A stretch of 64,000 nt of DNA from a virus: positions 8,223 to 72,222 of the IMG/VR virus record IMGVR_UViG_3300045988_134667, one strand, 5' to 3'. Below are positions 2,304 through 63,348 of this stretch, piece by piece (position 1 is the stretch's first letter; every line of letters starts with the position of its first letter). The notes below the pieces were generated by a model, which saw only the letters and a program-made list of their open reading frames with translations, was not told the origin of the DNA and did not search any database. The position numbers were made by a program, and so were the translations under genes.

Positions 2304-2535
2304 CGTAGTCCTCCATTTCTTTGTATTTAAATCCAAGCCAATTAATTACTCTGTCTGTCCCCAAACATCCAATACAGTCCTCATGCATATATTCTCCGTT
2401 TTCATTATCAAGATAGCGTTCACCTTGATAAATACCTTCGCCACAATAACAGCATAGATACTTTGGATGAGGTGGAGAGTAATAAGGACACCGATAATCA
2501 TGTAGACCGTCATTTCTTCCACATATACTACACAT
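2296..2535 (-). CDS. Cys-rich zinc-ribbon-like small protein
   Basis: ORF-track ORF with CxxC...CPYY...CCYCGEG pattern. Confidence 0.45.
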   Translation of the reverse strand: MCSICGRNDGLHDYRCPYYSPPHPKYLCCYCGEGIYQGERYLDNENGEYMHEDCIGCLGTDRVINWLGFKYKEMEDYDE

Positions 2536-2963
2536 ATAGTTGTTTAATTCTCCTTTAATACAGTTGCTTAATTTTTCAAGTTACAATTTTTAGATGGATA
2601 TTTGTTCACCGAATGGCGTAGAATTTTCTGTACAATGGTGTACATTAGAAATTCTGGTTAGAAATGGTATCTCAGTTAGATTTACTAGCTTGATATTTTC
2701 TCATACGTTCAGCCGCCTGTTTCTTCTGTTCATCTGTAAGTTCACGTTTCTTCGCTCTAAAACTGATTAATGTTTTATCCTTTAATAAATATTTCTTACC
2801 TCTACCAGTATCTTGAATGAGAGAGTACATATCAGGGCTTTACTTACATAATCTATCCAATTTAGTAATATATGTAGAATCTGAAGCATAAATTGTTGCA
2901 AATTTCTCATCACGCATCATATTGATACAAACTTCCTGTTCTTCAATTGAAACTGTCATATTT

Positions 2964-3179
2964 TTATCTGCCATTGTTCATTTTCCTTTCTCTATAACTT
3001 CTAATACTGTTATTCATTTGCTTTTCACATGAGCGATCGAAAGCCCAATCTGCGAAAATCTTATCTGCAATATTTCGAGATCCTTCATAGTCAGTACAAA
3101 AATCTGAAGCACAAATATTTCCTCCGTATGTATTTGCATATTTATAGTTCTTTGATGTAATTGTTACTGTTTTGTTCAT
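2964..3179 (-). CDS. hypothetical protein
   Basis: ORF-track ORF; SD AGGAGA upstream of ATG at 3179. Confidence 0.4.
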   Translation of the reverse strand: MNKTVTITSKNYKYANTYGGNICASDFCTDYEGSRNIADKIFADWAFDRSCEKQMNNSIRSYRERKMNNGR

Positions 3180-3275
3180 TAATTAGTTCTCCTTTTCTGT
3201 TTAAAAATAATTTGTTCATTTTGCATCAGCTCCTTTGAGTGCTGCGTTAATGGTTACATATGTATATTCTCTGTT

Positions 3276-3503
3276 TTATAATTCATTTTCTAATAATTTA
3301 ATTATCTTTGTTTTAACATTATCAGAAAATAAACAATTTTTATCTGACTCCAATAAGTCTAATACGGTCTGATATGATAGGTCGGACGATTTTAGTGTAT
3401 TGATATAATGTTCTTTGTTCTTAAACCATTTTGTACCAATTTTATATAATTGATTTGAGTCACCTATCTCATTTGTTCCTGCGATTTTTACCATTCTTCC
3501 CAT
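3276..3503 (-). CDS. hypothetical protein
   Basis: ORF-track ORF; SD AGGAGG before ATG at 3503. Confidence 0.5.
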   Translation of the reverse strand: MGRMVKIAGTNEIGDSNQLYKIGTKWFKNKEHYINTLKSSDLSYQTVLDLLESDKNCLFSDNVKTKIIKLLENEL

Positions 3504-3505
3504 AT

Positions 3506-4453
3506 TTAATTTTCCTCCTTTGTTATGAAGTCATATTTATCAAATACTCGTATATCACGAATCTTTTCCAAACATGACTCATCATTATTCTTTTTGTAAG
3601 TTGCTTCATATTTGTGATTTTCTTGCAAGACATATGCATAGACTTGTTGGATATCTTCTTCAGAATATTTAAAATCTTTATTTTTACAGATTTGATTATA
3701 CATTTGAGCAAGTCGTCTTTTGGCATTAGCCTTCCTTATATTATTCTCCACATATTTATATGAATCTTTATATTTTCGTTGGCTAATAGCAAAAGCGTCA
3801 ATATACAACTGATCTTCAGGTCTGCCGTATACATTTGGTAAACGAGTTATTTCACCTGAATCTTTATTGATCATAAAATCATTCTGCCTATAAATATAAA
3901 TAAGACCAATGCTTTCTAATATTTTGTTGTAATCAATAATGGATCTTTCTGAAATACCTGAAAGTTGAGATATGTATTCTATAGTAAGATTACCAACAAC
4001 TCGACATTTGTGCTGATATGCGTCTATATATACATCAATCGTTGAACTGATAGTTCCAATAAGGAAGATAAAGTATTTCAACAATAGAAGAGTATTAACA
4101 TCCTTTAGCCGACATATCGTTAAAATCTCTTCGTAGGTAATAATTGTAAAATATTCACCTTCTTCTGTGATAAAAAGATCAGAACAATCTATTATGTCAA
4201 ATTTACCTTTTGATTTAACTCGCTTTATAATACCTTGATCAATTAACTCATCGTAGCCAGTTTTCAAACCAGTATAAAATCTACGTGGATAGTCTAATGA
4301 TTTTGTAAGCTGATATGCTAGTATTTCACAAGATGTACATATTTCTTTTACATCTTCATTAGGCAAAAGGGTTTTTATGGCACAATAGGCTGCTAAGCCA
4401 TATATAGAAAGCTTGTCTGATTTATATATTTTTTCACTTAGCCATAATTGCAT
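3506..4453 (-). CDS. putative DNA-binding or replication-initiation-like protein (winged-helix-like segment)
   Basis: 315-aa ORF with SD GGAAGTG. The segment IEYISQLSGISERSIIDYNKILESIGLI resembles a wHTH. It lies next to iteron-like and repeat boxes. The functional call is inference. Confidence 0.5.
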   Translation of the reverse strand: MQLWLSEKIYKSDKLSIYGLAAYCAIKTLLPNEDVKEICTSCEILAYQLTKSLDYPRRFYTGLKTGYDELIDQGIIKRVKSKGKFDIIDCSDLFITEEGEYFTIITYEEILTICRLKDVNTLLLLKYFIFLIGTISSTIDVYIDAYQHKCRVVGNLTIEYISQLSGISERSIIDYNKILESIGLIYIYRQNDFMINKDSGEITRLPNVYGRPEDQLYIDAFAISQRKYKDSYKYVENNIRKANAKRRLAQMYNQICKNKDFKYSEEDIQQVYAYVLQENHKYEATYKKNNDESCLEKIRDIRVFDKYDFITKEEN

Positions 4454-4542
4454 CTGTTCACTTCCTTTCGCTTATATATTCTCCAACAGGAGTGCAGAAG
4501 AGTAAAACACTTAAAAATCAATGACTATGAATAACCATGGTG

Positions 4543-4615
4543 CAAAAATGTACAAGTTTATGCACGTACACTCCCCAAGTGTAGAGAAAAAATGTGCTCA
4601 AAAATGTACAAATTT
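4543..4615 (+). promoter_or_regulatory. direct repeats CAAAAATGTACAA(G/A)TTT x2 plus a partial third AAAAATGT, upstream of minus-strand gene 3506..4453
   Basis: Boxes at 4543-4559 and 4599-4615, 56 bp apart, each containing the TGTACA palindrome. Candidate operator or initiator-binding sites. Confidence 0.4.
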
Positions 4616-4695
4616 GCAGATAGTTCATTTACTATGATATTCAATTACAATGATTTTAATTAAACTCTTATTTTTTGTTTTACTCTTTCATTTAA

Positions 4696-5121
4696 TTATT
4701 CTCCTTCTGAATTACAATCTGAATTACAATTTTGTTCTAAATCAACATACTTCTCTTTGTAAATATCATCTACAAAGAATACTGGTAATTTATCATGATA
4801 CATTTCATAAAATTCTTCACCTGATATACTTATCCAAAAATTATTTCCTGTTTGTCTTTGTTTCTGTAATACGTCAATTTCTTTCTGATATTTACTATTT
4901 TTAATTATTCCTCCAATTTTTCCACAGATAGTACAATAACTGCTTAATGAAGTATGTATACGTTCTTTTTCTTCTTGAGTAAATGCGTTACTTTTAAAAT
5001 TCCATTTATATTGAATCAAACATTCTTCATAATGATGTTTGTGCTTTGATTTGCGGTTACTCTTTGAGATATTACTTTCTGTTGATTTGAGATATTTTGG
5101 TATTTCATTTTCTTGTATCAT
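4696..5121 (-). CDS. hypothetical protein
   Basis: ORF-track ORF trimmed to the internal ATG (MIQENEIPKY) preceded by a strong SD AGGAGG plus 8 nt. Confidence 0.45.
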   Translation of the reverse strand: MIQENEIPKYLKSTESNISKSNRKSKHKHHYEECLIQYKWNFKSNAFTQEEKERIHTSLSSYCTICGKIGGIIKNSKYQKEIDVLQKQRQTGNNFWISISGEEFYEMYHDKLPVFFVDDIYKEKYVDLEQNCNSDCNSEGE

Positions 5122-8207: not shown

Positions 8208-8276
8208 AAATGATAGCACTTGAAAAAAGTCAAATAATATGCTATCTTTGAATATATAAAAGGAGGCAAAAATTAT

Positions 8277-10273: not shown

Positions 10274-11203
10274 ATGTGTAAGAGAGTTTATTTAACAGCA
10301 AAAGAAGCAGAAATGGAAATGCAGGAATCACGGAACGCAGAAGGATTTACTGGCAAAATGGAAACTGATTATATTTCACGGATGATTAAGGACGCAAAAC
10401 GAAACAGTATGGTTGGAGATAAGCTTCAGCTTGTAGTAGATCCAATGTATATCCACATTCCTGAATGGCAGAGAAGATTAAAACTTACAAGAGCATACGC
10501 AATCGGTAATACATATAACAAATACAAATGGGATGTTCCGAAGGTACTGTTCCACAAAGGCAGATTGTATGTTATTGATGGTCAGCACAGAATATATGGC
10601 GCATTTAAGGCGAAAATGGATTCCGTAGTGGTTGAAATCATGGAATGTTCACTCGAAGAAGCAATTGATTTGTTTATCAATCAGTCACAGGATAGAGTGA
10701 AAATGCAGCCTATGGATATTTATAAGGCTGCTATTGCAGGTGGTAAGGGAGATTATGTGAAATTACAGGAAATTTGTCACAAGAATAATGTTGCAGTAAA
10801 AGGAGATGATGATAATGAAAACACAGTAGGAACGCTTACATCTATTTCTGATGGAGTAAAGTTGTCAAAGACAAACCCAGAGCTTCTTGATTCAATGCTT
10901 GCTCTGCTTGGAAAGCTTGGTTGGAACGGATATGCAGATTCTTACAACGGAAAAGCATATACCGCAAAAATTATTCGTGCTTTAAAAGCATTATATGCAT
11001 ACACAGAAGGCAGAACAGATGAAATGGAGAAAGCCTTAATTAAGCATTATAAAGGAACTGAATATTTTGTTGAGAATGTAATGGATAAAACACAAGCACA
11101 AATTTTTGATTATTTGTCTGAAATTGTCCGTTATGAAATGGAAAGTCCATTTACAGATAAAAATAAAACTGCAAAGAAAACAGCAAAAGTAAAAGCAATG
11201 TAA
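10274..11203 (+). CDS. ParB/sulfiredoxin-superfamily nuclease-domain protein with a DGQHR motif (DndB-like)
   Basis: YVIDGQHRIYGAF motif; SD AAGGAGG. Confidence 0.65.
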   Translation: MCKRVYLTAKEAEMEMQESRNAEGFTGKMETDYISRMIKDAKRNSMVGDKLQLVVDPMYIHIPEWQRRLKLTRAYAIGNTYNKYKWDVPKVLFHKGRLYVIDGQHRIYGAFKAKMDSVVVEIMECSLEEAIDLFINQSQDRVKMQPMDIYKAAIAGGKGDYVKLQEICHKNNVAVKGDDDNENTVGTLTSISDGVKLSKTNPELLDSMLALLGKLGWNGYADSYNGKAYTAKIIRALKALYAYTEGRTDEMEKALIKHYKGTEYFVENVMDKTQAQIFDYLSEIVRYEMESPFTDKNKTAKKTAKVKAM

Positions 11204-30810: not shown

Positions 30811-30839
30811 TTGACATATGATATGCATGGGTATATAAT
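30811..30839 (+). promoter_or_regulatory. consensus promoter TTGACA, 17 bp spacer, TATAAT, with flanking inverted repeat ATATCATAT / ATATGATAT
   Basis: -35 at 30811-30816 and -10 at 30834-30839. The operator-like inverted repeat straddles the -35, in the divergent region between the two HTH genes and the toxin gene. Confidence 0.65.
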
Positions 30840-30911
30840 GCAAAGCATAAGAAGTAAACAAGAAGCAAACAAAACGTAGGACATTACATAAGAAGAAAGG
30901 AGGTAAAAGGA

Positions 30912-31277
30912 ATGACTGTAAACTTTGGGTATGTTATGATGATTGACTTTGGAGAAGATAAAATTAATTCAGTTCAAGTAGGAGTAAGACCGGGCGTAAT
31001 CATTCAGAACGACATCGGGAACAAATATTCTCCGACCTCAATAGCTGTTCCTTTGACCAGTGAAATCAAGAAATTAAATATGCCATGTCATAAAGTCCTA
31101 CATATGAACGAACAAAATGGCTTGACGGAAGATTCAATGGTGCTTGGAGAGCAAGTAAGGGTAATTGACAAAAATTCGATATTATACAAAATGGGCACTT
31201 TAAACGATGGTGAATGTGATCTTGTCGTTAAAGCATATTTTGCAAATATACCTAGAAGGAGGGTTAATTGTGGCTGA
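30912..31277 (+). CDS. MazF/PemK-family endoribonuclease toxin-like protein
   Basis: GYVMMIDFGEDKINSVQVGVRPGVIIQNDIGNKYSPTSIAVPLTSEI. RPGVIIQND is the PemK/MazF fold signature. SD AAAGGAGG. Confidence 0.65.
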   Translation: MTVNFGYVMMIDFGEDKINSVQVGVRPGVIIQNDIGNKYSPTSIAVPLTSEIKKLNMPCHKVLHMNEQNGLTEDSMVLGEQVRVIDKNSILYKMGTLNDGECDLVVKAYFANIPRRRVNCG

Positions 31278-31572
31278 ATATAAGAGTATTACAAAGAAAG
31301 AATTGACAGAATTACTTGATAAATATCCAGAAGATAAAGAGTTTAGTATTATCCAAACTCAACTTGGAATGACAATTATTCCATTAGGAGAGCGGATAGC
31401 AAATAAAGTAGATATTTTGGAAATTGCGAATGCAGCAAAAACAATGATTTATTCAGAGAATAAATTCATGTCACAAGTTGATATGCACAGCGTAAGGCAA
31501 GATATATTTAATATAGAAAGAAATGGAATAATGGATACGTTGTTGCTACCTAGATTTTCTAATAAAGAATAA
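31270..31572 (+). CDS. hypothetical protein co-transcribed with the MazF-like gene (possible cognate partner)
   Basis: GTG start with SD AGGAGGG; overlaps the toxin gene by 8 nt. Confidence 0.45.
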   Translation: MAEYKSITKKELTELLDKYPEDKEFSIIQTQLGMTIIPLGERIANKVDILEIANAAKTMIYSENKFMSQVDMHSVRQDIFNIERNGIMDTLLLPRFSNKE

Positions 31573-31653
31573 CTTTAGTGTCCTATAATTAGGACACCAT
31601 ACATATTAGAATGAAAACATGAACAAGAAATCGAACAAGTGTTTGTTTTATAC

Positions 31654-31682
31654 TTGACACAAACATATGTTTGGACTATGAT
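31654..31682 (+). promoter_or_regulatory. promoter TTGACA, 17 bp spacer, TATGAT, with the 14-bp palindrome CAAACATATGTTTG in the spacer; likely drives the tRNA cluster
   Basis: -35 at 31654-31659 and -10 at 31677-31682; a perfect palindromic operator sits inside the spacer. Confidence 0.55.
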
Positions 31683-31881: not shown

Positions 31882-31954
31882 AGGGCATTCGCCAAGTGGT
31901 AAGGCACAGGATTTTGATTCCTGCATTACATCAGTTCGAATCTGATATGCCCTG
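31882..31954 (+). tRNA. tRNA-Gln (anticodon UUG)
   Basis: Cloverleaf with acceptor AGGGCAT/ATGCCCT, D-arm GCCAAGTGGTAAGGC, anticodon stem CAGGA/TCCTG with loop TTTTGAT, and T-loop TTCGAAT. Architecture is nearly identical to E. coli tRNA-Gln. Confidence 0.8.
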
Positions 31955-32113
31955 CTTTGTGACATTCCACCCGGTATGTTACAGAACGCAAGTGATTTCC
32001 TTGTAAGAGCAAAATGTGTAGTTGCTATAGTTCTACCATAGTTTAATCCACTAACGGATTACAAGCTGATACTATAGAACTTCCTGATAAACTTGCGATA
32101 GTGTCAGCTACTT

Positions 32114-32187
32114 GGATCATTAGCACAATTGGTTAGTGCATTCGGCTCATAACCGAAAGGCTCAGAGTTCAAGTCTCTGATGATCCA
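32114..32187 (+). tRNA. tRNA-Met or initiator/Ile-lysidine type (anticodon CAU)
   Basis: Acceptor GGATCAT/ATGATCC, D-arm GCACAATTGGTTAGTGC, anticodon stem TTCGG/CCGAA with loop CTCATAA, T-arm CAGAGTTCAAGTCTCTG. Confidence 0.8.
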
Positions 32188-32212
32188 TTGCTAAATCAAA
32201 CAAAGAGAGGAG

Positions 32213-32829
32213 ATGATTACGTTGGCACAATATGTAATTACAGACGGTTCTCGTTGGATTATGAGAAATCGTAATGGTAAATATGTTCCAACATCTTGCG
32301 AGGCATTGGCTGATACATTTTCAAATAAAGCAGCCAATAATCTATATAATAACTCGCTACCCAAAGCCTTGAAATCAGTATTTCATATCCAGAAAATTGA
32401 TACCCCACCAGATAATGTAAAGCAGATTACACAATCAGAAGTGGAAAATAATACCGAAAAAGTTATGGTTGCTGAAAATATCTAGAAATGGATTGACAAA
32501 ATAACTGATCTTAATGGATTAGCAACAGATGCATTACATAGAAAAGAAGAGCTGTGTGAAGAACTTAGCTTTGTAGACAGGGAATTATCTGATATCAATC
32601 ATTATATAGAATTTTGTAATCTTAATGCAGCACAAGGATGGAAGGCATATAAGATGATAAAGGAACGGAGAATAAAAAGAAGAAGTATCAAAAATGAGAT
32701 ACAAATTCTTAACATTATTCTTGATAAAAAGATTTCTGACACAGTTACAAATGAGATTTTGGAATCCATGTCGAAAATGGATAAGCGTACATATGAACCA
32801 CGAGTAATGAACGAGTTGTTTGATTTGTA
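32213..32829 (+). CDS. paralog of the 25057..25650 product, interrupted by an in-frame TAG at 32483-32485 (pseudogene or amber read-through)
   Basis: Track ORF 32213..32485 ends in TAG. The same frame continues without further stops to TAA at 32827-32829, with no start codon until a late ATG. Homology to the intact paralog spans both sides of the TAG. Confidence 0.5.
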
Positions 32830-32845
32830 AAGGAAGGATATACAT

Positions 32846-33025
32846 ATGGTGATTTGTAAAAGGTGTTATACACCTATGGTTGGTGTTATGTCATTCTCAA
32901 AGAACAAGCATGAGAAATTCTGTCGTTGTCCGAAGTGTTGTTCAGAGACACGGCATATAAAAATCAATGATAACGAGTTGAGTTTTGGAGAGATATTACA
33001 TAGAGAAATCAAGAAGGGAAAGTAA
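32846..33025 (+). CDS. zinc-ribbon small protein (59 aa)
   Basis: SD AAGGAAGGA; MVICKRCYTPM...CRCPKCC. Confidence 0.5.
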   Translation: MVICKRCYTPMVGVMSFSKNKHEKFCRCPKCCSETRHIKINDNELSFGEILHREIKKGK

Positions 33026-33032
33026 TTACATA

Positions 33033-33593
33033 ATGGAAATACAACAAATATTGGAATGGTACTGTGATAATGAAATGTATCAGTTAAAAAAGATGTGTTA
33101 CCCAATGTTGATAAAGATTGGAGGTATATCTGACAAAGATTATGACGACTTTTACAGTATCGCTTTAAGTGTATTATCAGACACCGCATTAAGATTTGAT
33201 TCAGAAAAAGAAATAGATTTTGATTCATTCTTAGCCAGTAACATTAAGCGAAAGTTTAAAACCGAGATTCGTGATCGTAATCGTGAAAAACGTATTCCTG
33301 CTAAGAAAATTGAGAGTACAAGTAATCTTGTTACAGAAGATGGACTGGAACTTGGAGAAACCATTCCATCAAAGTTTGATACATATGAAACTGCTTGTGA
33401 GTATTTGTTTGAAGGTACTAAGATCCAAAGATATTTGGATAAGTTATCATATACACAACGCAAAATCGTTTCGCTATTATCTAATGGATATAAAGCAAAA
33501 GAAATCAGAGAATTATTACATATGGATAGCAAACAATATTCTAATAATCTTGCAGCTATTCAAGCATATGAAAATGTAAAAATTTTAATGTAA
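33033..33593 (+). CDS. sigma-70-family RNA polymerase sigma factor (phage-encoded, ECF/late-sigma-like)
   Basis: Region-2-like YDDFYSIALSVLSDTALRFD and region-4 HTH LSYTQRKIVSLLSNGYKAKEIRELL. Confidence 0.7.
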   Translation: MEIQQILEWYCDNEMYQLKKMCYPMLIKIGGISDKDYDDFYSIALSVLSDTALRFDSEKEIDFDSFLASNIKRKFKTEIRDRNREKRIPAKKIESTSNLVTEDGLELGETIPSKFDTYETACEYLFEGTKIQRYLDKLSYTQRKIVSLLSNGYKAKEIRELLHMDSKQYSNNLAAIQAYENVKILM

Positions 33594-33612
33594 ACATAAG
33601 GAGGAAATAGTC

Positions 33613-35049
33613 ATGGCAAAGAAGGTAAGAGAAGAAAATATTCCATTGATTAACTATACCAGTGAGGTAAAAGATGGAGATGTTAATGACAATCAGGATG
33701 TACAGAGATATTTCTGTAGTGACAAGCCATTCGTTAATGGAATTGGTGTTACGATTCTAACTGGCGACTATCTTCCACCTTTAATTTTAGCTGAAGTTCC
33801 TTTAAATGAGGATATTGTACAAAAATATATTGTAGATGGTCTTCAGAGAACAACCGCATTAATGCAGATTAGATATGGGAATCATAAATTTACTGGTGCT
33901 ATTGAAGATAGTGAAATTGAGTACCAAGAAAAGCAGGTAGATGAAAATGGAAAATTTTTAAAAGATGAAGATGGGAATTTTGTATGGGAAAAGAAAACAT
34001 TTGATATTAAAAATAAAACATATGATGATTTTCCAAAAGAACTGAAGAAACGATTTGACAACTATCAGCTCAGAATTGCCACATATCAAAATTGTGATAT
34101 GAAAAAGGTAAGCAAATTGGTAAGAAAGCTGAATGTACAAAGAGGAATGAATACAAGTCAGAGAGCATTGACTTGGATTCCTACATATGCAAGAAAAATT
34201 AAAAATATTGCTGATGAAGGATTTTTTAAAAATAGTATTGAGTATTCTGACACTGCTAGGAAAAATGGAGAATATATGCAGAGCGTATGCCGATCTGTTA
34301 TGAATGTTTTTCATTTTGATGACTACAAACGTGGTGCAAAAGAAATATGTGATTATCTCGAAGATAATAGTAACATTGAAGAATTCAATACAGTCCATGA
34401 ATATTTTCAAAGAATCGAAGCAGCTTGTAAAGATACTTGTAAAGATATTCTTGTTAAAAAAGATATTCCTGTATGGCTGACGGTATTTAGTAGATTTGTG
34501 AAAAGTGGTTTACAAGATAGTAAATTTGCTGATTTTATTCATGAGTTGTCAGGAAAATTGCATAGTACGGATGTTAATGGCGTTAGTTACGATTCATTAA
34601 ATAAGGAGTCTGGTACTACGGATAAAAAACTTGTAGTTGCTAAAATTAATACATATACAGCTTTGATGAATGAATTTTTACATATTGATACAAGAGAAGT
34701 AAATGACACAGAATTGGAGAATAACAATACGGAAGAAAGTGCTGAAGAAAATACGGAAGAAAGTGTTCTTTCCTTTGTTCAAGAAAATACGAATCCAAAT
34801 GTGACGGACGAAGATATAAACCTTTACACAGACATGGTAGAAGATTGTGTGAAGATTGATGATCCCGTTTATAAAGAGTGTGGAATGGCATTAGTAGCAC
34901 TCATGGCTTATGCTTGTCAGAATGACAAGGATCAAGATTTTGAAAGATGGATTGAAAATTATCGCAATAAATCCGAATTTAGTCCATCGCAGAAAGTTAA
35001 TTATACATATATGAAACGCAGTTTTGATAATTTCGTAGCAAATGCGTAA
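33613..35049 (+). CDS. DUF262-like (ParB/GmrSD N-terminal nuclease-domain) protein with an acidic C-terminal region
   Basis: VDGLQRTTAL resembles the DGQQR motif of DUF262. 478 aa; SD AAGGAGG; forms an operon with the sigma factor. Confidence 0.55.
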   Translation: MAKKVREENIPLINYTSEVKDGDVNDNQDVQRYFCSDKPFVNGIGVTILTGDYLPPLILAEVPLNEDIVQKYIVDGLQRTTALMQIRYGNHKFTGAIEDSEIEYQEKQVDENGKFLKDEDGNFVWEKKTFDIKNKTYDDFPKELKKRFDNYQLRIATYQNCDMKKVSKLVRKLNVQRGMNTSQRALTWIPTYARKIKNIADEGFFKNSIEYSDTARKNGEYMQSVCRSVMNVFHFDDYKRGAKEICDYLEDNSNIEEFNTVHEYFQRIEAACKDTCKDILVKKDIPVWLTVFSRFVKSGLQDSKFADFIHELSGKLHSTDVNGVSYDSLNKESGTTDKKLVVAKINTYTALMNEFLHIDTREVNDTELENNNTEESAEENTEESVLSFVQENTNPNVTDEDINLYTDMVEDCVKIDDPVYKECGMALVALMAYACQNDKDQDFERWIENYRNKSEFSPSQKVNYTYMKRSFDNFVANA

Positions 35050-35634: not shown

Positions 35635-35670
35635 ATATAACAAAAGATATATTCTACAAAGGTGAAAAAG

Positions 35671-35982
35671 ATGAAGATAACAGGAATAATTCGGAGAGTC
35701 GATGATTTAGGTCGAATAGTAATTCCAAAGGAAATTAGAAGACAAGTGTTTGGAAAAACAGACGCATCTGGTGAGCCAATGGAAATATTTATTGACGGAG
35801 AAAATATTGTACTCCGAAGATATGAGGAAATACAAACATGTAAATGGATAAAATATGATTATAGAACGATTTGCCCTAAAGAACACGATGCAGGTAATCT
35901 ATATTGGAGAATACCCGAAGATATGGATAAGATAAAATATTGTCCTTATTGTGGCAAAGAAATAGTTATTGTAGATGAGTAA
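35671..35982 (+). CDS. AbrB/MazE/SpoVT-family DNA-binding domain fused to a C-terminal zinc ribbon
   Basis: RRVDDLGRIVIPKEIRRQV swapped-hairpin motif, followed by CPKEHD...CPYCGKE. Confidence 0.65.
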   Translation: MKITGIIRRVDDLGRIVIPKEIRRQVFGKTDASGEPMEIFIDGENIVLRRYEEIQTCKWIKYDYRTICPKEHDAGNLYWRIPEDMDKIKYCPYCGKEIVIVDE

Positions 35983-37584: not shown

Positions 37585-39642
37585 ATGGATGGATTTATGA
37601 TGTTTAAGAAGGCTTTACAGAAGCACTTCAATGAAATGCAGAAAGAGGCAACACATTTATTTGAGGTAAATGTAGATAAGGATGAATTATGGAATACATA
37701 TCTTGATAGCTTCCCTGCTGGTACAAATAATATTTTCAGAGAGCGTAGGGAACATGATTGTAGTTGTTGTAGACAGTTTATTAAGAATATTGGTTCTGCT
37801 GTCACCATCAAAGATAATCAGATTCACACAATTTGGGAACTGAATCTTGGCGATACAACATACCAGCCAGTGTGCGATGCACTTGACGCTTTTGTAAAGG
37901 CTCATACAGTTACAGATATTTATACAACTAAGTTCCCTAAAATTGGTACAGATTTTAACTTTGAGGAAATCAATGGAAAATCTCATCAGTGGGATCATTT
38001 CTTCTTAGAGCTTCCAAGCAAATTCGTAAATAGAAGTAGTCGTTCTAATGAGGAAGTTAAAGGACAGTTCAGAGATACAAGAAATGTATTTAAGCGTTCT
38101 CTTGATGAAATCACAATGGATGCGCTTGATACGATTCTTGAACTGATTAATTCCAATACGCTTTATAAGGGTGAAGAATGGAAGACTGTGCTCACAGAGT
38201 TTAAAAAGTACAAGAAAGAATATGATAAGTTGACATCTGAATCTGATAAGGAATTGTACGCTTGGGAGAAGTCTGTAACAGCAGGTATTGCAATTGGCAG
38301 AATTAGAAATCATTCTATTGGAACACTCCTTGTAAATGTGAGCGAAGATATGGATTTGGATACTGCTGTTAGAAAATATGAGCAGATTGTAGCACCGAGC
38401 AACTATAAAAGACCCAAGGCCATTTTCACAAAGAAGATGCTTGAGGACGCAAAGAAGACAATTACAGAACTGGGATATATGGATTCATTGCAGCGAAGAT
38501 TTGCTACTTTGAATGATATTACAGTCAATAATGTATTGTTCTCTAATAAGAGTGCTGCAAGAAGAATGAATGGTGCAAATGATATTTTTGGACAGATGGA
38601 AAAGGATGTTGTTGTAAGCCCTAAGAAGTTTTCTAAGGTCGAAGAGATTTCAGCACAGGATTTTATTGATAAGGTACTTCCAACTGCAAAAGAGATTGAA
38701 GCTTTTGTAGAAAATAAACATGAGAAGAACTTTGTTTCTATGATTGCACCTGTTAATCCAGACGCTAAGACAATGTTCAAATGGAATAATGGATTATCTT
38801 GGGCTTATTCAGGAAACATTACTGACTCTGATATGAAGCAGAATGTAAAAGCTGCTGGCGGTAATGTCGATGGTGTACTCAGATTTTCAATTCAGTGGAA
38901 CGAAGATGGACATGACAATTATGACCTTGATGCACATTGTGTTGAGCCAAATGGAACAGAAATCTATTATGGTAGTTACAAAGCACCAAGAATTACTTCT
39001 ATGGGCGGTCAGTTAGATGTTGATGTTATTAATCCATGTGGAAAAGTTGCAGTAGAGAATATTACATGGCAGGATTTATCAAGAATGAGACCAGGAACAT
39101 ATAGATTATTTGTACATCAGTATTCAGGTGCAGTAAGGCATGGATTCAGAGCAGAAGTTGAGTTCAATGGAGAGATTTATTCATTTGATTATAGTAACCC
39201 TATGAGAACTGGCGAGAATGTTCAGGTGGCAGAAGTTACACTTGATGAGAATGGCAACTTCTCAATTAAGGAAAAGCTGTCTGGAAGTTCATCTATTTCA
39301 AGTCGTGAGATTTGGGGTGTAAATACAAATCAGTTTGCTCCTGTATCAGTAATTAGTTACAGTCCAAACTATTTTGATGAACAGGATGGAATTGGTCATA
39401 GACATTTATTCTTCTTCCTGAAGGATTGTGTAAATAGTGAAGAGCCTAATGGATTCTATCTTGAGTTTCTTGACAATGATTTAATGAAGCATAAGAGAGT
39501 ATTTGAGGCTTTAGGTGCTAAGTGTCATGTAGAAGATACTGATGATCAGCTTTCAGGAATTGGATTCTCTATGACAAAGAGAGCAGATTTAGTTGTTAAG
39601 GTTAAGGGCGCAACAGAGCGTATAATGAAGATTAAGTTTTAA
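37585..39642 (+). CDS. large hypothetical protein (685 aa), no recognisable domain
   Basis: Longest ORF in the window; contains REHDCSCCRQF; followed directly by the 39663 gene. Confidence 0.7.
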   Translation: MDGFMMFKKALQKHFNEMQKEATHLFEVNVDKDELWNTYLDSFPAGTNNIFRERREHDCSCCRQFIKNIGSAVTIKDNQIHTIWELNLGDTTYQPVCDALDAFVKAHTVTDIYTTKFPKIGTDFNFEEINGKSHQWDHFFLELPSKFVNRSSRSNEEVKGQFRDTRNVFKRSLDEITMDALDTILELINSNTLYKGEEWKTVLTEFKKYKKEYDKLTSESDKELYAWEKSVTAGIAIGRIRNHSIGTLLVNVSEDMDLDTAVRKYEQIVAPSNYKRPKAIFTKKMLEDAKKTITELGYMDSLQRRFATLNDITVNNVLFSNKSAARRMNGANDIFGQMEKDVVVSPKKFSKVEEISAQDFIDKVLPTAKEIEAFVENKHEKNFVSMIAPVNPDAKTMFKWNNGLSWAYSGNITDSDMKQNVKAAGGNVDGVLRFSIQWNEDGHDNYDLDAHCVEPNGTEIYYGSYKAPRITSMGGQLDVDVINPCGKVAVENITWQDLSRMRPGTYRLFVHQYSGAVRHGFRAEVEFNGEIYSFDYSNPMRTGENVQVAEVTLDENGNFSIKEKLSGSSSISSREIWGVNTNQFAPVSVISYSPNYFDEQDGIGHRHLFFFLKDCVNSEEPNGFYLEFLDNDLMKHKRVFEALGAKCHVEDTDDQLSGIGFSMTKRADLVVKVKGATERIMKIKF

Positions 39643-40889: not shown

Positions 40890-42467
40890 ATGAGTAGTAT
40901 TTTAAGCAACTTAGGAATGGTAATTCCGATTGTAGCAATTGTATTAGTTGTAGTTGGTTTGTTAGTAGCAGGTTATGTAAAGGCTTCACCTGATAGAGCA
41001 TACATAATTTCTGGACTTAGGAAAGAACCAAAGGTGTTAATTGGTAAAGCTGGAATCAAGATTCCGTTTTTAGAAAAGAAAGATGAGCTGAATTTGCAGT
41101 TGATTCCAATTGATGTAAAGACAAGTAGTGCAGTTCCAACAGCAGATTATATTAATATTAATGTAGATGCTGCGGTCAACATAAAGGTAAGTTCAGACAA
41201 TACAAGATTACAGCTTGCAGCTCAAAACTTCTTAAATAAGCCAGTTGATTATATTGGAAGGGTGGCAAGAGAAGTTCTCGAAGGAAATATGAGAGAAATT
41301 GTTGGCAAGATGAATTTAGAGGAAATGGTTTCAGATAGACAGAAATTTGCCGAACTTGTAAAAGAGAATGCAGAACCAGATCTTGCAGCTATGGGACTTG
41401 ACATTGTAAGTTTCAATGTACAGAACTTTGTTGATGAAAATGGTGTTATTGAGAACCTTGGCGTAGATAATATTGTTAAGATTCAGAAAAATGCAGCTAT
41501 CTCAAGAGCCGAAAGTGAAAAAGAGATTGCAAAAGCAAGAGCTATCGCAAAGAAGGAAGCAAACGATGCGGAAGTAAGTTCTGAATTAGAAATTGCAAAT
41601 GCACAGGCTGAAGCTCAGAAGAAGAAAGCAATCGTCCAGGCTAATGCTAATAGAGAATCACAGGAAGCTCAGATTGAAGCAGATACTCTTATTGCACAGA
41701 AAGAGAATGAACTTGCAATTAAAAAGGCAGAATTACAGAAAGATGCTGATACAAAGAAAGCAAGTGCAGATGCAGCATATAATATTCAGCAGGAAACAGA
41801 GAGAAAGACAGTTGAGATTGCAACTGCTGATGCAAATCTTGCCCGTCAGGAAAAGGCTATTACTTTAAAAGAGAAAGAAGTAGAACTTACAGAGAGAACT
41901 CTTGAGGCAACAGTAAAGAAACAGGCAGAGGCAGATAAATACGCAAAACAGCAGGAAGCAGATGCTAAGTTATACGAAACTCAGAGACAGTCAGAAGCAA
42001 AACTTTTCGAGAGGCAGAAGAATGCTGAAGCAGAAAAGTTTGAGCAGGAAAAGAAAGCAGAAGCTGAAAAAGCAACAGCAGATGCCAACAGATATACAAT
42101 GGAACAGGAGGCAGAAGGTATTCGCAGCAAAGGACGGGCAGAAGCGGATGCGATTAAAGCAAAAGCATTAGCAGAAGCAGAAGGTATTGAAAAGAAAGCA
42201 GAAGCCATGAAACAGATGGGCGAAGCTGCGGTATTAGAGATGTACTTCAAAGCGATGCCTGAGATTGCGAAGAATATTGCAGAACCGCTTGCGAAGGTTG
42301 ATAAGATTACAATGTACGGTGATGGAAATTCATCTAAACTGATGAAAGATATTATGAATACTCTTAACCAGGTAACAGATGGAATGAAAGAATCTACTGG
42401 CATTGATCTTAGTTCTGTACTTGCTGGTTTTGCAGGTGCAAAGATTGCTGACAAAACACAGAAATAA
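40890..42467 (+). CDS. flotillin / SPFH (band-7) family membrane protein (FloT/YuaG-like)
   Basis: N-terminal TM segment (VIPIVAIVLVVVGLLVAGYV), an SPFH core, a long Ala/Glu/Lys-rich flotillin-repeat region (EAQKKKA, AEAEK), and a 525-aa length typical of bacterial FloT. Confidence 0.75.
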   Translation: MSSILSNLGMVIPIVAIVLVVVGLLVAGYVKASPDRAYIISGLRKEPKVLIGKAGIKIPFLEKKDELNLQLIPIDVKTSSAVPTADYININVDAAVNIKVSSDNTRLQLAAQNFLNKPVDYIGRVAREVLEGNMREIVGKMNLEEMVSDRQKFAELVKENAEPDLAAMGLDIVSFNVQNFVDENGVIENLGVDNIVKIQKNAAISRAESEKEIAKARAIAKKEANDAEVSSELEIANAQAEAQKKKAIVQANANRESQEAQIEADTLIAQKENELAIKKAELQKDADTKKASADAAYNIQQETERKTVEIATADANLARQEKAITLKEKEVELTERTLEATVKKQAEADKYAKQQEADAKLYETQRQSEAKLFERQKNAEAEKFEQEKKAEAEKATADANRYTMEQEAEGIRSKGRAEADAIKAKALAEAEGIEKKAEAMKQMGEAAVLEMYFKAMPEIAKNIAEPLAKVDKITMYGDGNSSKLMKDIMNTLNQVTDGMKESTGIDLSSVLAGFAGAKIADKTQK

Positions 42468-47780: not shown

Positions 47781-49140
47781 TACAATAGAGAGTCAGTTAT
47801 TGACTCTCTATAACAGAGGAGGTGAAACAATATAAATAAAGCGGAAAGACATGTAATAAACAAAAACCATCCAATGTATTTAGCTTGTGATAACTTATGT
47901 TTTCTGGCAAAGAATATGTATAATTTATGCAATTATACAATTCGCCAAGAATTCTTTGAGACAAAGAAAGTTAAGAAGTATGGTGACTTAAATAAGGAAC
48001 TAAAACATACAGATGCTTTTATGGAACTTGGATCAAATGCAGCACAGATGGTTACAAAAGCATTGTGTAAGTCTTGGAAATCATTTCTTGTATCAGTTAA
48101 AGATTATACTATTCATCCAGAAAAGTATTTGGGAAAACCTAAGATACCAGCTTATAAAAAGAAAGACGGTAGATTTGTTTGTACTTTAACTAATATGCAG
48201 ACTAAAGTGAAAGATGGTTATTTGTATTTTGCTTTTAAGAGAATGAAAGAGTATAACAATTTAATTCTCACAAAAGTTACAGGTCATCATTTGTCTACGA
48301 GAATTGTTCCAAAAGGTGGTTGTTATATTATTGAAATTGTTTATGACGATGAAAAGCAATGTAAAAGTGAATTGGATAGAAACAGAATTGCTTCGATTGA
48401 TTTAGGTGTAAATAACTTTGTAACAATGGTAAATAACATAGGAGAATCTTCTATTGTTATAAATGGCAAAGGAATTAAATCTTATAATCAGTATTGGAAT
48501 AAAAAGGTTTCTAAATTAAGAAGTATTGCGAAAACCGTAAATGGATCTGATTGGACTAAACAGATGCAGAGCCTTACAAATAAAAGATATTTCAAGATGG
48601 AGTATTTCATGCATTGTGCGAGCAAATGGATTGTTAGTTATTGTGTGAAACATAATATTGGAACACTTGTTATTGGTAAGAATGATGGTTGGAAACAGAA
48701 AACAAATATGTGTAAAATTACAAATCAGACTTTTACTCAAATACCATACGAAAGTTTTCTTGAAAAGCTTGGATATAAGTGTGAAGAAACTGGTATAGAT
48801 TTGATTAAAACAGAAGAAGCTTATACTTCAGGAACTTCTTTCTTAGACAATGAGTTACCTGTTAAAGAAAATTATAACAAGTCAAGAAGAGTTTATAGAG
48901 GATTATTTAAAAGCAACAACGGAGAATATATAAATGCCGATGTTAATGGTGCATTTCAAATAATGCGTAAAGTATTCTCAAATGTAAAAGCAGATGAGAT
49001 AGTGGGTGCATATTCACACCCTGTAATTATAAATTTGTAATTGTAAATGGAAAATAAAAAGCCAATGAATGCCAAGATTGATTCAATGCATGAGAAAAAT
49101 CTGTTTAAATTACAGCCAATGCCAAGTTTTGTGTATCAGG
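47781..49140 (+). mobile_element. IS200/IS605-family element carrying tnpB only (IS1341-like); right boundary approximate
   Basis: Perfect subterminal hairpin ATAGAGAGTCA-gttat-TGACTCTCTAT at 47785-47811, immediately upstream of tnpB. Repeated GCCAATG(A)ATGCCAAG segments lie downstream of tnpB, in the expected right-end / guide-RNA region. Confidence 0.55.
47874..49040 (+). CDS. tnpB: TnpB (IS605 OrfB-type RuvC-like RNA-guided nuclease family)
   Basis: RuvC-I IASIDLGVNNF, RuvC-II IGKNDGW, RuvC-III ADVNGAFQIMRKV. The usual CxxC zinc finger appears to be replaced. Confidence 0.7.
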   Translation: MYLACDNLCFLAKNMYNLCNYTIRQEFFETKKVKKYGDLNKELKHTDAFMELGSNAAQMVTKALCKSWKSFLVSVKDYTIHPEKYLGKPKIPAYKKKDGRFVCTLTNMQTKVKDGYLYFAFKRMKEYNNLILTKVTGHHLSTRIVPKGGCYIIEIVYDDEKQCKSELDRNRIASIDLGVNNFVTMVNNIGESSIVINGKGIKSYNQYWNKKVSKLRSIAKTVNGSDWTKQMQSLTNKRYFKMEYFMHCASKWIVSYCVKHNIGTLVIGKNDGWKQKTNMCKITNQTFTQIPYESFLEKLGYKCEETGIDLIKTEEAYTSGTSFLDNELPVKENYNKSRRVYRGLFKSNNGEYINADVNGAFQIMRKVFSNVKADEIVGAYSHPVIINL

Positions 49141-49151
49141 CGTAAATGAAA

Positions 49152-49196
49152 TACTATATATAGTGTTTATAGAAAATATAGGCACTATATATAGTG
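49152..49196 (+). promoter_or_regulatory. pair of perfect palindromes (C)ACTATATATAGT(G), 31 bp apart
   Basis: Core sites at 49153-49164 and 49184-49195, upstream of gene 49241. Confidence 0.55.
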
Positions 49197-49240
49197 GTAT
49201 TTTTACCAAGAAACATAGATTTCCTTCGGGATGAAAAGAG

Positions 49241-60689: not shown

Positions 60690-60728
60690 AGAACAAATAA
60701 CAATATATAGAAAAATTAAAAAATAATA

Positions 60729-60773
60729 CACTATATATAGCGGTTAAATAAAATAAAACTACTATATATAGTA
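60729..60773 (+). promoter_or_regulatory. pair of palindromes CACTATATATAGCG / TACTATATATAGTA, 31 bp apart
   Basis: Sites at 60729-60742 and 60760-60773, upstream of gene 60828. Confidence 0.55.
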
Positions 60774-60827
60774 ACAAAATGGACAAGAAATATCGGTTTC
60801 ATGCGAAGTTTAGAAAGAGAGAAAAAT

Positions 60828-61201: not shown

Positions 61202-61492
61202 ATGAATTTTGGACAGGCAATTGAAGCTTTAAGGAACGGTAAAAAGGTAGCAAGAGTTGGGTGGAACGGTAAAGGTATGTTTTTGTATATGACAACAGGA
61301 AGTGTTGTTCATTTAGATGAAATGAAATCAGAAACAGCAAATTATTTAAGAAGTTTTTGTAAAGATAAAGGTATGGACGAAATTGAAATTTGTCCACATA
61401 TTGATATGAAGACAGCAGACAATAAGTTAGTTATTGGATGGCTTGCGAGTCAGACAGATATGCTTGCAGAAGATTGGGACGTGGTAGAATAA
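61202..61492 (+). CDS. DUF2829-family protein (Thoeris anti-defence Tad2-like candidate)
   Basis: N-terminus MNFGQAIEALRNGKKVARVGWNGKGMF matches the characteristic DUF2829 opening (M.FGEA.EALK.GKKV.R.GWNGKG). Confidence 0.55.
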   Translation: MNFGQAIEALRNGKKVARVGWNGKGMFLYMTTGSVVHLDEMKSETANYLRSFCKDKGMDEIEICPHIDMKTADNKLVIGWLASQTDMLAEDWDVVE

Positions 61493-61499
61493 AATAATA

Positions 61500-61544
61500 T
61501 ACTATATATAGTTTACACTAAATAAATGCACACTACATATAGTG
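61500..61544 (+). promoter_or_regulatory. pair of palindromes TACTATATATAGTT / CACTACATATAGTG, 31 bp apart
   Basis: Sites at 61500-61513 and 61531-61544, upstream of gene 61597. Confidence 0.5.
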
Positions 61545-61596
61545 ATAAAAGTACCAAGAATTTTCGATTTCTTTTAGAGAATATACATAAGGAGGA

Positions 61597-62490: not shown

Positions 62491-63348
62491 ATGCCAGTAC
62501 ATGATGATTTAGGCGTTAGGATGAAGACATTTTATGAGCAGATCCCAAAGACAAAACTGATGAGAAGGTGTCCAGTTGCTATCCGCATTGATGGAAAAGC
62601 GTTTCACACATTCACAAGAGGATTCCAGAAACCGTTTGATGAAGTGTTAATTAAGTCTATGCAGGAAACAATGAAATACTTATGTGAGAATATTCAGGGC
62701 TGTGTTCTTGGTTACACGCAGTCAGATGAGATTACACTAATTCTTATTGATTATAAGAAGCTCACATCTTCCGCATGGTTTGATTATGAAGTGCAAAAGA
62801 TTTGTAGTATTGCTGCAAGTATGGCTACGATGGCATTTAATACATTCTTTGCTAAAAATGTTTATTTTACTGATAAGTTTGATGAACATGGGAATATCAT
62901 TGACGAAGAATATGTTTCTATTCATTTAGCCCATGTCAAAGCAGTTGACAAAGGTGCAATGTTCGATGCTCGTTGTTTCAATATTCCAAAAGAAGAAGTG
63001 ACAAATCTCATATATTGGAGACAATTAGACGCTTCTCGTAATTCAATTCAGATGGTAGGTCAAGCCAATTTTTCACACAAGGAATTACAGAATAAGTCAT
63101 GTAATGATATTCAAAACATGCTTATGACTCAGAAAGATATTAACTGGAACGATTTACCGACTTATCAGAAGAGAGGAAGCTGTTGTGTAAAAATGTATCA
63201 GACTGCTAATGGTGTTTTTGAAAGTCATGCAGAAGATGAATTAGTCGAAAATGGCAGGACATATTGGAGTATTGATACAAATATCCCTATTTTCAAGGGC
63301 GAAGGTAGAGAATATATTGATAGGTTAGTATTCGTTGGTGAAGAGTAA
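62491..63348 (+). CDS. Thg1-like protein (tRNA-His guanylyltransferase / 3'-5' nucleotidyltransferase family)
   Basis: VAIRIDGKAFHTFTRGFQKPFDEVLIKSM resembles the Thg1 N-terminal catalytic-core segment. MFDARCFNIPKEEVTNLIYWRQLD matches the downstream Thg1 WRQ region. Confidence 0.6.
   Translation: MPVHDDLGVRMKTFYEQIPKTKLMRRCPVAIRIDGKAFHTFTRGFQKPFDEVLIKSMQETMKYLCENIQGCVLGYTQSDEITLILIDYKKLTSSAWFDYEVQKICSIAASMATMAFNTFFAKNVYFTDKFDEHGNIIDEEYVSIHLAHVKAVDKGAMFDARCFNIPKEEVTNLIYWRQLDASRNSIQMVGQANFSHKELQNKSCNDIQNMLMTQKDINWNDLPTYQKRGSCCVKMYQTANGVFESHAEDELVENGRTYWSIDTNIPIFKGEGREYIDRLVFVGEE

Follow-up and report, generated by a model that had tools for sequence, protein, structure and literature searches.

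The 64 000-nucleotide (nt) stretch of viral DNA analysed here (the window; positions 8,223 to 72,222 of IMG/VR virus record IMGVR_UViG_3300045988_134667) encodes a small sigma-70-family factor directly upstream of a 478-amino-acid (aa) protein with a DUF262 domain of the ParB/sulfiredoxin (Srx) fold. The two are adjacent or fused in nearly all relatives that could be compared, and were never found apart. Sigma factors and ParB-family nucleotide switches both rank among the best-studied bacterial modules of DNA transactions, and here their linkage is obligate. The link recurs in hundreds of protein clusters at 50% identity and is sealed by gene fusions, and the module sits in the early regulatory region of abundant human-gut phages of Lachnospiraceae with genomes of 150–190 kb. 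On balance, we consider it probable that the sigma factor and its DUF262 partner form one early phage transcription unit. If the two halves do act together, this would represent a new way of controlling a sigma factor, via DNA binding or sensing that depends on nucleoside triphosphates (NTPs), and would give DUF262 a role outside restriction and defence. It would also provide a handle on the transcription programme of uncultured gut phages.

A divergent sigma factor

Three tightly packed open reading frames (ORFs) occupy positions 32846–35049 of the + strand and encode a zinc ribbon, the sigma factor and the 478-aa protein. As the initial annotation of this DNA had proposed, they form a single unit (table 1). 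The sigma ORF opens with a TTG codon (32985) in the list of ORFs, but the ATG at 33033 is the better supported start, because it is preceded by a ribosome-binding site (RBS; GAAGGGAAAG) and because the clusters of homologues are 184–186 aa long and begin with MEIQ.

When the 186-aa product is searched alone, it matches Pfam Sigma70_r2 with E = 1.4e-3 (score 18.9, cut-off 24) and r4_2 with E = 0.077 (13.1, cut-off 25.7). Its matches to PHROG_351, 'RNA polymerase sigma factor' (E = 1.1e-8), and to TIGR02937 (E = 1.3e-8; 34.7 bits, cut-off 42.9) are stronger in E value. A profile built from 18 sigma homologues retrieves the sigma-H structure 3mzy_A (E = 1.3e-8) over regions 2 to 4, and dozens of SigA chains rank behind it. 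Residues of region 2 are conserved among the homologues, one of which is annotated 'RNA polymerase sigma factor [Bacteriophage sp.]', and both the sigma2 and sigma4 folds are present. Regions 2 and 4 had been recognised at the outset, and profile and structure evidence bears out both; judged by these homologies, the protein can be regarded as a divergent but genuine two-domain member of the sigma-70 family.

A DUF262 partner protein

Pfam GmrSD_N (PF03235, DUF262) matches residues 47–161 of the 478-aa protein alone, with E = 2e-4 and 22 bits against a cut-off of 33.2. The same model matches 47 of 63 family members (best E = 2.8e-14) and scores up to 38.1 bits in fused relatives; there is no other recurrent domain family. 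AlphaFold gives a confident model of the protein, with a mean predicted local distance difference test (pLDDT) score of 89.8. When this model is used as a query in Foldseek, BrxU ranks first (E = 5e-4), followed by CDP-bound ParB, Noc, PadC, sulfiredoxin and KorB; the predicted structure has the ParB/Srx fold. Sequence searches of solved structures with DUF262 profiles or with a fused protein returned nothing significant.

DUF262 domains carry three motifs, namely QRxxxW (I), DGxQR (II) and FxxxN (III) (PMC12065111). Motif II of the window protein reads DGLQR (residues 75–79). In an alignment of 63 sequences D75 is invariant and G76 and R79 are nearly so, and in an alignment of 26 closer relatives D75, Q78 and R79 are invariant, with G76 nearly invariant. 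Motif I is represented by Q31-R32, of which R32 is invariant; the tryptophan of this motif is found in many relatives, with S36 in the clade of the window. Motif III retains an invariant N174, with V or I in place of F. The DGLQR segment lies inside the GmrSD_N match, at the junction of strand 68–73 and helix 78–88, which is the position of the nucleotide-binding loop in the ParB/Srx fold, and the earlier assignment of a DGxQR ParB/GmrSD-type domain to the N-terminus is thereby upheld. Conservation of these motifs suggests that the protein may bind or hydrolyse NTPs.

The segment that follows (residues 191–356) consists of about eight main helices with pLDDT above 90. In NsnA, DndB, GmrSD and SspE, DUF262 is followed by a DNA-binding domain named ParBDB (PMC12065111). 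The PADLOC model of NsnA (385 positions) spans both DUF262 and the helical domain in the fused relative P0241 (residues 206–594, E = 3e-11), and relatives match this model with E = 3e-11 to 8e-16; the window proteins themselves gave no match to PADLOC models. The helical domain would thus correspond to ParBDB, and DNA binding is predicted.

Two features of the initial annotation require correction. What had been called an acidic tail (about residues 357–385) is an internal disordered linker, since a confidently folded five-helix domain comes after it; the linker varies in length and sequence among relatives. The description as a nuclease-domain protein also does not hold, as Pfam detects neither DUF1524/HNH nor any other nuclease domain in the window protein or in any of the 63 family members, and the protein is therefore not a GmrSD-type enzyme. 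Split and fused forms have homologous C-terminal domains (hhalign probability 100%, E = 5e-38), and searches revealed no sequence similarity between this domain and sigma or known anti-sigma domains. The domain also has a mosaic distribution: near-identical C-domains occur on N-domains that are only about 55% identical, and the reverse is also seen, which indicates recombination within the 478-aa gene at the acidic linker.

Pairing and fusion across relatives

The window proteins were compared by tblastn with related loci L001–L095, and further loci up to L117 were added. Among the first 95, wherever upstream DNA is available the DUF262 homologue is preceded by a sigma homologue, in nearly all cases immediately. 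When the 116 related loci with upstream DNA are taken together, a sigma gene either precedes the DUF262-like gene or is fused to it in every one. Split, adjacent genes are also found in L099–L105 and in the distant loci L013 and L015, and fused genes in L096, L097, L098 and L106–L117 (L099–L105 and L106–L117 are from IMG/VR). The two proteins differ from locus to locus in how similar each is to its window counterpart, independently of one another: in one locus the sigma factor is 94% identical and the DUF262 protein 52%, and in another the values are 36% and 55%. Alleles of sigma factor and partner have been shuffled by recombination, yet gene order is kept throughout. The split arrangement is retained in the most distant pairs, at 45% and 39% in L013 and 34% and 40% in L015, and down to about 34% identity of the DUF262 protein. 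The latter locus, L015, belongs to a non-phage element of a different type in a Lachnospiraceae genome, where the genes run RadC, sigma, DUF262, toxin–antitoxin-like genes and recombinase.

The fused form is exemplified by a 765-aa ORF in a 176-kb phage record (MT835469.1, L096), in which the domain order is sigma2, sigma4, DUF262, helical domain, acidic linker and C-domain. Fused proteins of 751–766 aa make up more than 120 clusters that recur on many independent contigs, and hence are not the product of assembly error. An exhaustive search of 1.84 billion protein representatives (clusters at 50% identity) with a hidden Markov model yielded 747 family members; among the best 150 of these, about 48 are full-length fusions (670–934 aa) and 7 more look like truncated fusions. 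The DUF262 match in the full-length fusions begins near residue 212–277, and at 447 in a protein of 898 aa. When the N-terminal extensions of ten fused proteins were examined, Sigma70_r2 was matched in eight, r4 or GerE in three, and a sigma-type model of some kind in nine. The contigs that carry the distant fused representatives P0400 and P0423 are about 3 kb long and were uninformative as to context; two scans that started from distant unfused proteins returned no matches.

A neighbour-joining tree of 113 DUF262 parts places split and fused forms in two main clades, with at least five changes of state, and in most lineages the sigma factor is a free-standing gene. Within the phage group, the module is a constituent of the conserved core and the genes that flank it vary; no conserved downstream effector gene was found among the called neighbours of the related loci. 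The pairing had been singled out as unusual, with a comparison of gene neighbourhoods suggested as one of the checks. That comparison shows it to be meaningful as well, the two genes co-occurring in every relative examined and being fused in many. Conserved fusion of full-length partners is Rosetta-stone evidence, and the two proteins very probably act together.

The distant locus L013, from a Lachnospiraceae metagenome-assembled genome, has features of its own. Its DUF262 gene is truncated at 366 aa and adjoins the host genes rimP-nusA-infB. Divergent to the sigma–DUF262 pair, on the − strand at 2458–5112, lies a gene whose 884-aa product contains an FDVDGD motif and falls in the family of RdRP/YonO-like single-subunit RNA polymerases (PF05183, E = 3.6e-11).

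Probable early transcription of the operon

A near-consensus sigma-A promoter lies upstream of the tRNA genes and the operon, and a second is found at the switch between helix-turn-helix (HTH) and PemK genes (table 1). The two flank the PemK gene pair, beside a region resembling a cI/Cro switch, and most of the loci sampled from related phages have promoters that score 11–12 of 12 at the syntenic position. From its sequence, the area 30811–31682 looks like an early-promoter and immunity-switch region. Because the upstream sigma-A promoters are conserved, the operon is most likely read early by unmodified host polymerase.

Proposed function and alternatives

We propose that host RNA polymerase would read the operon early in infection from the consensus sigma-A promoter, and that the sigma factor so produced, with its sigma2 and sigma4 domains, would redirect the host core enzyme to promoters of the phage. 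Its dedicated partner would be the 478-aa protein, combining a ParB/DUF262 nucleotide-binding domain and a ParBDB-like DNA-binding domain, without a nuclease, with a small C-terminal domain hung on a flexible acidic linker. The two proteins would operate as one unit, as the single polypeptide of sister phage lineages suggests. The DUF262 half may bind or sense DNA in an NTP-dependent manner and so tether, target or gate the sigma half. In this way the presence of phage DNA, or its state, would determine transcription that depends on the sigma factor (middle or late). Frequent accessory members would be the zinc ribbon and p205, the product of the gene upstream. That the two proteins interact physically, bind or hydrolyse NTPs and bind DNA is a prediction of this model, as are the direction of regulation (activation or inhibition) and the promoters targeted.

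Several observations weigh against the proposal. No cognate promoter motif for the sigma factor emerged from k-mer enrichment over the 38 intergenic regions of the window, which returned only the RBS and TATATAGT; no parS-like site was identified, and no palindrome is common to more than 7 of 24 diverged loci. The sigma factor and the 478-aa protein each score below the curated Pfam and NCBIfam cut-offs, and the sigma and DUF262 assignments are secure at the level of family and structure only. All of the sampled lineages are related Firmicutes gut elements, and part of the co-occurrence therefore reflects shared ancestry, although the fusions and the context of L015 argue that there is more to it. 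Co-variation between sigma region 4 and the C-domain is moderate (Mantel r = 0.58, against 0.34 for the adjacent N-domain); it hints at a contact, is contradicted by individual loci (in L001 region 4 is 97% and the C-domain 56% identical, in L002 58% and 78%) and is not used here as evidence. Finally, the AlphaFold model of the fused protein (predicted template modelling score 0.57) gives no confident arrangement of the domains relative to each other.

An opposite sign of regulation, and in this alone a different account, would follow if the partner were a negative regulator of the anti-sigma type, which we regard as possible but rather unlikely. The sigma factor would then be held inactive, perhaps via the C-domain, until NTP or DNA is bound, and the fused forms would be auto-inhibited sigma factors, like those extracytoplasmic function (ECF) sigma factors that carry C-terminal extensions. 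Cis-acting C-terminal regulatory extensions are established for ECF sigma factors, the flexible acidic linker of the modelled partner bears a small helical domain, and the C-domain tracks region 4 more closely than the adjacent N-domain does. However, this co-variation is not strict, and the C-domain lacks sequence similarity to known anti-sigma or sigma domains.

Somewhat less likely again is that the module is a device for defence, superinfection exclusion or anti-defence, in line with the anti-defence or modification-sensing module that the initial annotation had suggested. Here DUF262 would serve as a sensor of modified or foreign DNA, as it does in GmrSD, SspE and Menshen NsnA, and the 'sigma' part would be either only an added HTH DNA-binding sensor or an output that starts an abortive or protective programme. 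DUF262 does act as a DNA sensor in several defence systems, and about 23% of NsnA proteins bear extra N-terminal DNA-binding domains (PMC12065111). The match of relatives to the PADLOC NsnA model points the same way, as do the position of the locus next to an integrase/repressor/PemK region, a frequent site of prophage accessory genes, and the several DNA methyltransferases encoded downstream in the window. Against this, neither a nuclease nor NsnB or NsnC is present, the downstream genes are variable and include no conserved effector among the called neighbours, and the window proteins have no PADLOC match. Moreover, the sigma part is complete, with sigma2, sigma4 and conserved region-2 residues, and is a free-standing gene in most lineages, and the module lies in the conserved core of the phage group and not in a variable island.

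Inherited synteny without coupling, with a DUF262/ParB-like protein serving partition, replication or packaging and an independent sigma factor, would fit the sampling of related gut Firmicutes elements and the resemblance of the fold to ParB, but is very unlikely because in-frame fusions that keep all domains are widespread and diverse, the pair is kept in the different element context of L015, gene order survives the shuffling of alleles, and there is neither a ParA-type gene among the called neighbours nor a parS-like palindrome.

Returning to a joint transcription unit, a bolder form of it, to which we attach a low probability, is that sigma–DUF262 is an NTP-gated, DNA-loaded initiation factor, in which the DUF262-ParBDB part would load onto phage DNA or scan it, possibly read its modification state, and carry or release the sigma part at promoters. 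The activity of the sigma factor would then depend on a nucleotide switch of the ParB type. By analogy, such a factor would be a functional parallel to sliding-clamp activation of late transcription in phage T4, built from unrelated parts and widespread in large gut Firmicutes phages.

Organisation of the locus and its surroundings

The coordinates of the module and of the features around it are given in table 1.

Table 1. Features of the sigma–DUF262 locus, in window coordinates.
Feature	Position	Strand	Description
second sigma-A promoter	30811-30839		TTGACA-17-TATAAT; at HTH/PemK switch
near-consensus sigma-A promoter	31654-31682	+	TTGACA-17-TATGAT; 11/12 match; upstream of tRNAs and operon
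tRNA-Gln(TTG)	31882-31955	+	ARAGORN; between promoter and operon genes
tRNA-Met(CAT)	32113-32188	+	ARAGORN; weak blastn match to phage tRNA
p205 upstream gene	32213-32830	+	conserved, ~205 aa; in-frame TAG 32483-32485
zinc ribbon gene	32846-33025	+	59 aa; RBS AAGGAAGG
sigma factor gene	33033-33593	+	186 aa; sigma2 and sigma4 only; conserved EDG-containing linker
478-aa protein gene	33613-35049	+	RBS AAGGAGG; 19 nt past sigma stop
ParB/Srx-fold DUF262 domain (aa 1-190)	33613-34182	+	motifs QR (31-32), DGLQR (75-79), N174
all-helical middle domain, putative ParBDB equivalent (aa 191-356)	34183-34680	+	predicted model; NsnA alignment in relative
acidic, variable, disordered linker (aa 357-385)	34681-34767	+	pLDDT <50 over 362-381; variable among relatives
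C-terminal five-helix domain (aa 386-478) and stop codon	34768-35049	+	pLDDT ~90; fold family unassigned
stem-loop	35086-35126	+	12-bp stem, 17-nt loop, no U-tract

The zinc ribbon has the cysteine pattern C5-x2-C8 ... C28-P-K-C31, and about 40 distinct homologues keep all four cysteines. Of 117 loci, 80 have a homologue, which lies directly upstream of fused genes in L097 and in loci of the L106 type; the zinc ribbon thus belongs to the module frequently but not obligatorily. Library searches gave it no significant family match. A zinc-binding anti-sigma factor (ZAS) was considered and rejected, as the CxxC...CPKC pattern with no conserved histidine differs from the HxxxCxxC of that family. 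The p205 gene likewise found no family match in library searches, and its homologues precede both split and fused sigma–DUF262 genes. Relatives encode one intact p205 protein of 202–206 aa, and the codon at 32483–32485, TAG in the window, is CAG (Gln) in 12 of 12 relatives checked; by this comparison the stop codon in this genome reflects either a C-to-T nonsense mutation or a sequencing variant. Stop-codon recoding was rejected as an explanation, since reading TAG or TGA as sense gives no systematic lengthening of ORFs in the window.

Two further elements had been linked to the module by the initial annotation. The hairpin that follows the 478-aa gene does exist (the 181-nt intergenic region folds with z = −3.7, and one compensatory A-T to G-C change is seen), but it is confined to the window and its closest relatives of the L016 type, and is a local feature outside the conserved module; a role as a conserved terminator or site was rejected on the same grounds. 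The ACTATATATAGT palindromes, suggested as cognate sites of the sigma factor, are indeed enriched, with 8 near-matches where 0.38 are expected. Three intergenic elements of 83 nt (49144–49226, 60721–60803 and 61492–61574) each contain two of these palindromes 31 nt apart, followed by CAAGAA...TTTC. The palindromes lie 14–28 kb downstream of the module and are absent from 96 of 96 related loci, so the suggestion falls away; the 83-nt elements probably serve another regulator as operator or promoter.

The G+C content of the window is about 32% and, from about 6 kb onwards, almost all of its genes lie on the + strand, with a strong positive GC skew. Gene orientation and GC skew change sign together near 5–6 kb, with minus-strand genes before this point and nearly all plus-strand genes after it, and the flip may mark a replication origin or terminus, or a boundary of divergent transcription. 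Immediately upstream of the module lie genes for a tyrosine recombinase, two HTH regulators (one of them divergent), a PemK-type toxin, two tRNAs and p205. PHROG matches downstream comprise an HNH endonuclease, DNA methyltransferases, an ATPase and PHROG_1735, and other genes match SPFH/flotillin, MT-A70, PcfJ and Thg1. Close relatives are IMG/VR viral contigs of about 90–190 kb and metagenome contigs, and distant copies are found in three GTDB genomes, two of which are Lachnospiraceae. A search for DNA relatives in a collection of annotated phages gave no useful match, near or distant. We take the window to belong to a large gut phage of Lachnospiraceae.

Other genes of this phage group are recorded here as observations in their own right. 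Just downstream of the module (35662–35982), a gene encodes 106 aa in which an N-terminus of AbrB/MazE type (PHROG antitoxin, E = 6e-17) is joined to a CxxC zinc ribbon at the C-terminus, and its homologues occupy varying positions in relatives. Unusual cargo genes at 37585–39642, 40890–42467, 47874–49040 and 62491–63348 encode a 685-aa DUF8224/PHROG_1735 protein that relatives also keep, SPFH/flotillin, a TnpB-like transposase of IS605 type and a Thg1-like tRNA-His guanylyltransferase. In relatives, the equivalent variable positions hold SIR2, Tpt1, TerD and a P-type ATPase. A second gene that is possibly related to ParB (DUF6551, E = 5.7e-7) lies 22 kb upstream of the module at 10274–11203, and locus L008 encodes an additional GmrSD_N protein of 266 aa (2745–3545) upstream of the integrase. 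This phage group may therefore encode several proteins of the ParB/DUF262 type.

Comparison with known systems

DndB provides a precedent for a DUF262 protein that acts as a DNA-binding regulator. Other DUF262 proteins are enzymes: GmrSD, BrxU and SspE combine DUF262 with DUF1524 and are type IV restriction and phosphorothioate-sensing enzymes. The window protein differs from these in having no DUF1524/HNH domain and a different C-terminal domain, carried on an acidic linker, and in being phage-encoded and always paired or fused with a sigma factor. With NsnA and DndB it shares a nuclease-less core of two domains, DUF262 and ParBDB, and its relatives cover the NsnA model over its full length. 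Unlike the Menshen and Dnd systems, there is no NsnB ATPase, NsnC or dnd gene nearby, the partner has an extra C-terminal domain, and it is accompanied by a complete sigma2–sigma4 factor, whereas the Menshen survey reported only folds like sigma region 1.1 among the N-terminal domains of NsnA. The genes downstream of the module are small and variable (DUF5839 and others without a match), and no AAA_15/DUF3696 ATPase is found among the called neighbours.

ParB-fold proteins that act in transcription are a second point of reference. KorB is a precedent of this kind within the ParB family, and BisD and HerB are ParB-like clamps and regulators that also provide a precedent for transcription control. 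Like BisD, VirB, HerB and KorB, the window protein would be a nucleotide-switch protein of the ParB fold, encoded by a mobile element, that binds DNA and controls transcription. Those proteins are canonical ParBs with an HTH domain and a GERR motif, which work with partners such as KorA or BisC, or alone, and none has been reported as paired with or fused to a sigma factor. The window protein belongs instead to the DUF262 branch: it has DGxQR in place of GERRxRA and a ParBDB-like middle domain in place of the HTH, and no ParA-type gene is found among the called neighbours, nor a conserved palindrome near the module.

Among phage regulators, the window factor resembles gp55 of T4, with gp33 and gp45, and gp28 and gp33/34 of SPO1, in being a small early phage sigma factor that would redirect host polymerase. 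The T4 sigma factor requires the DNA-tracking gp45 clamp to activate late promoters (PMC2988020), which provides a working analogy for a partner that would be bound to DNA and depend on NTPs. The partner described here bears no relation in sequence or fold to gp33 or gp45, and clamp-like behaviour of DUF262 is an analogy only.

The fused relatives follow the same logic as ECF sigma factors with fused C-terminal regulatory domains, such as groups ECF41 and ECF42, in which a sigma2–sigma4 core is followed by a regulatory domain in one polypeptide. The window sigma factor lies under the cut-off of the ECF model TIGR02937, and to our knowledge the DUF262-ParBDB-C-domain module of about 520 aa has not been described as a type of ECF extension. 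A full-text literature search for DUF262 or ParB together with a sigma factor likewise found no description of this association. Taken with the fusions, the comparison suggests that the module consists of a phage sigma factor and a dedicated partner of a new type, to which it is sometimes fused.

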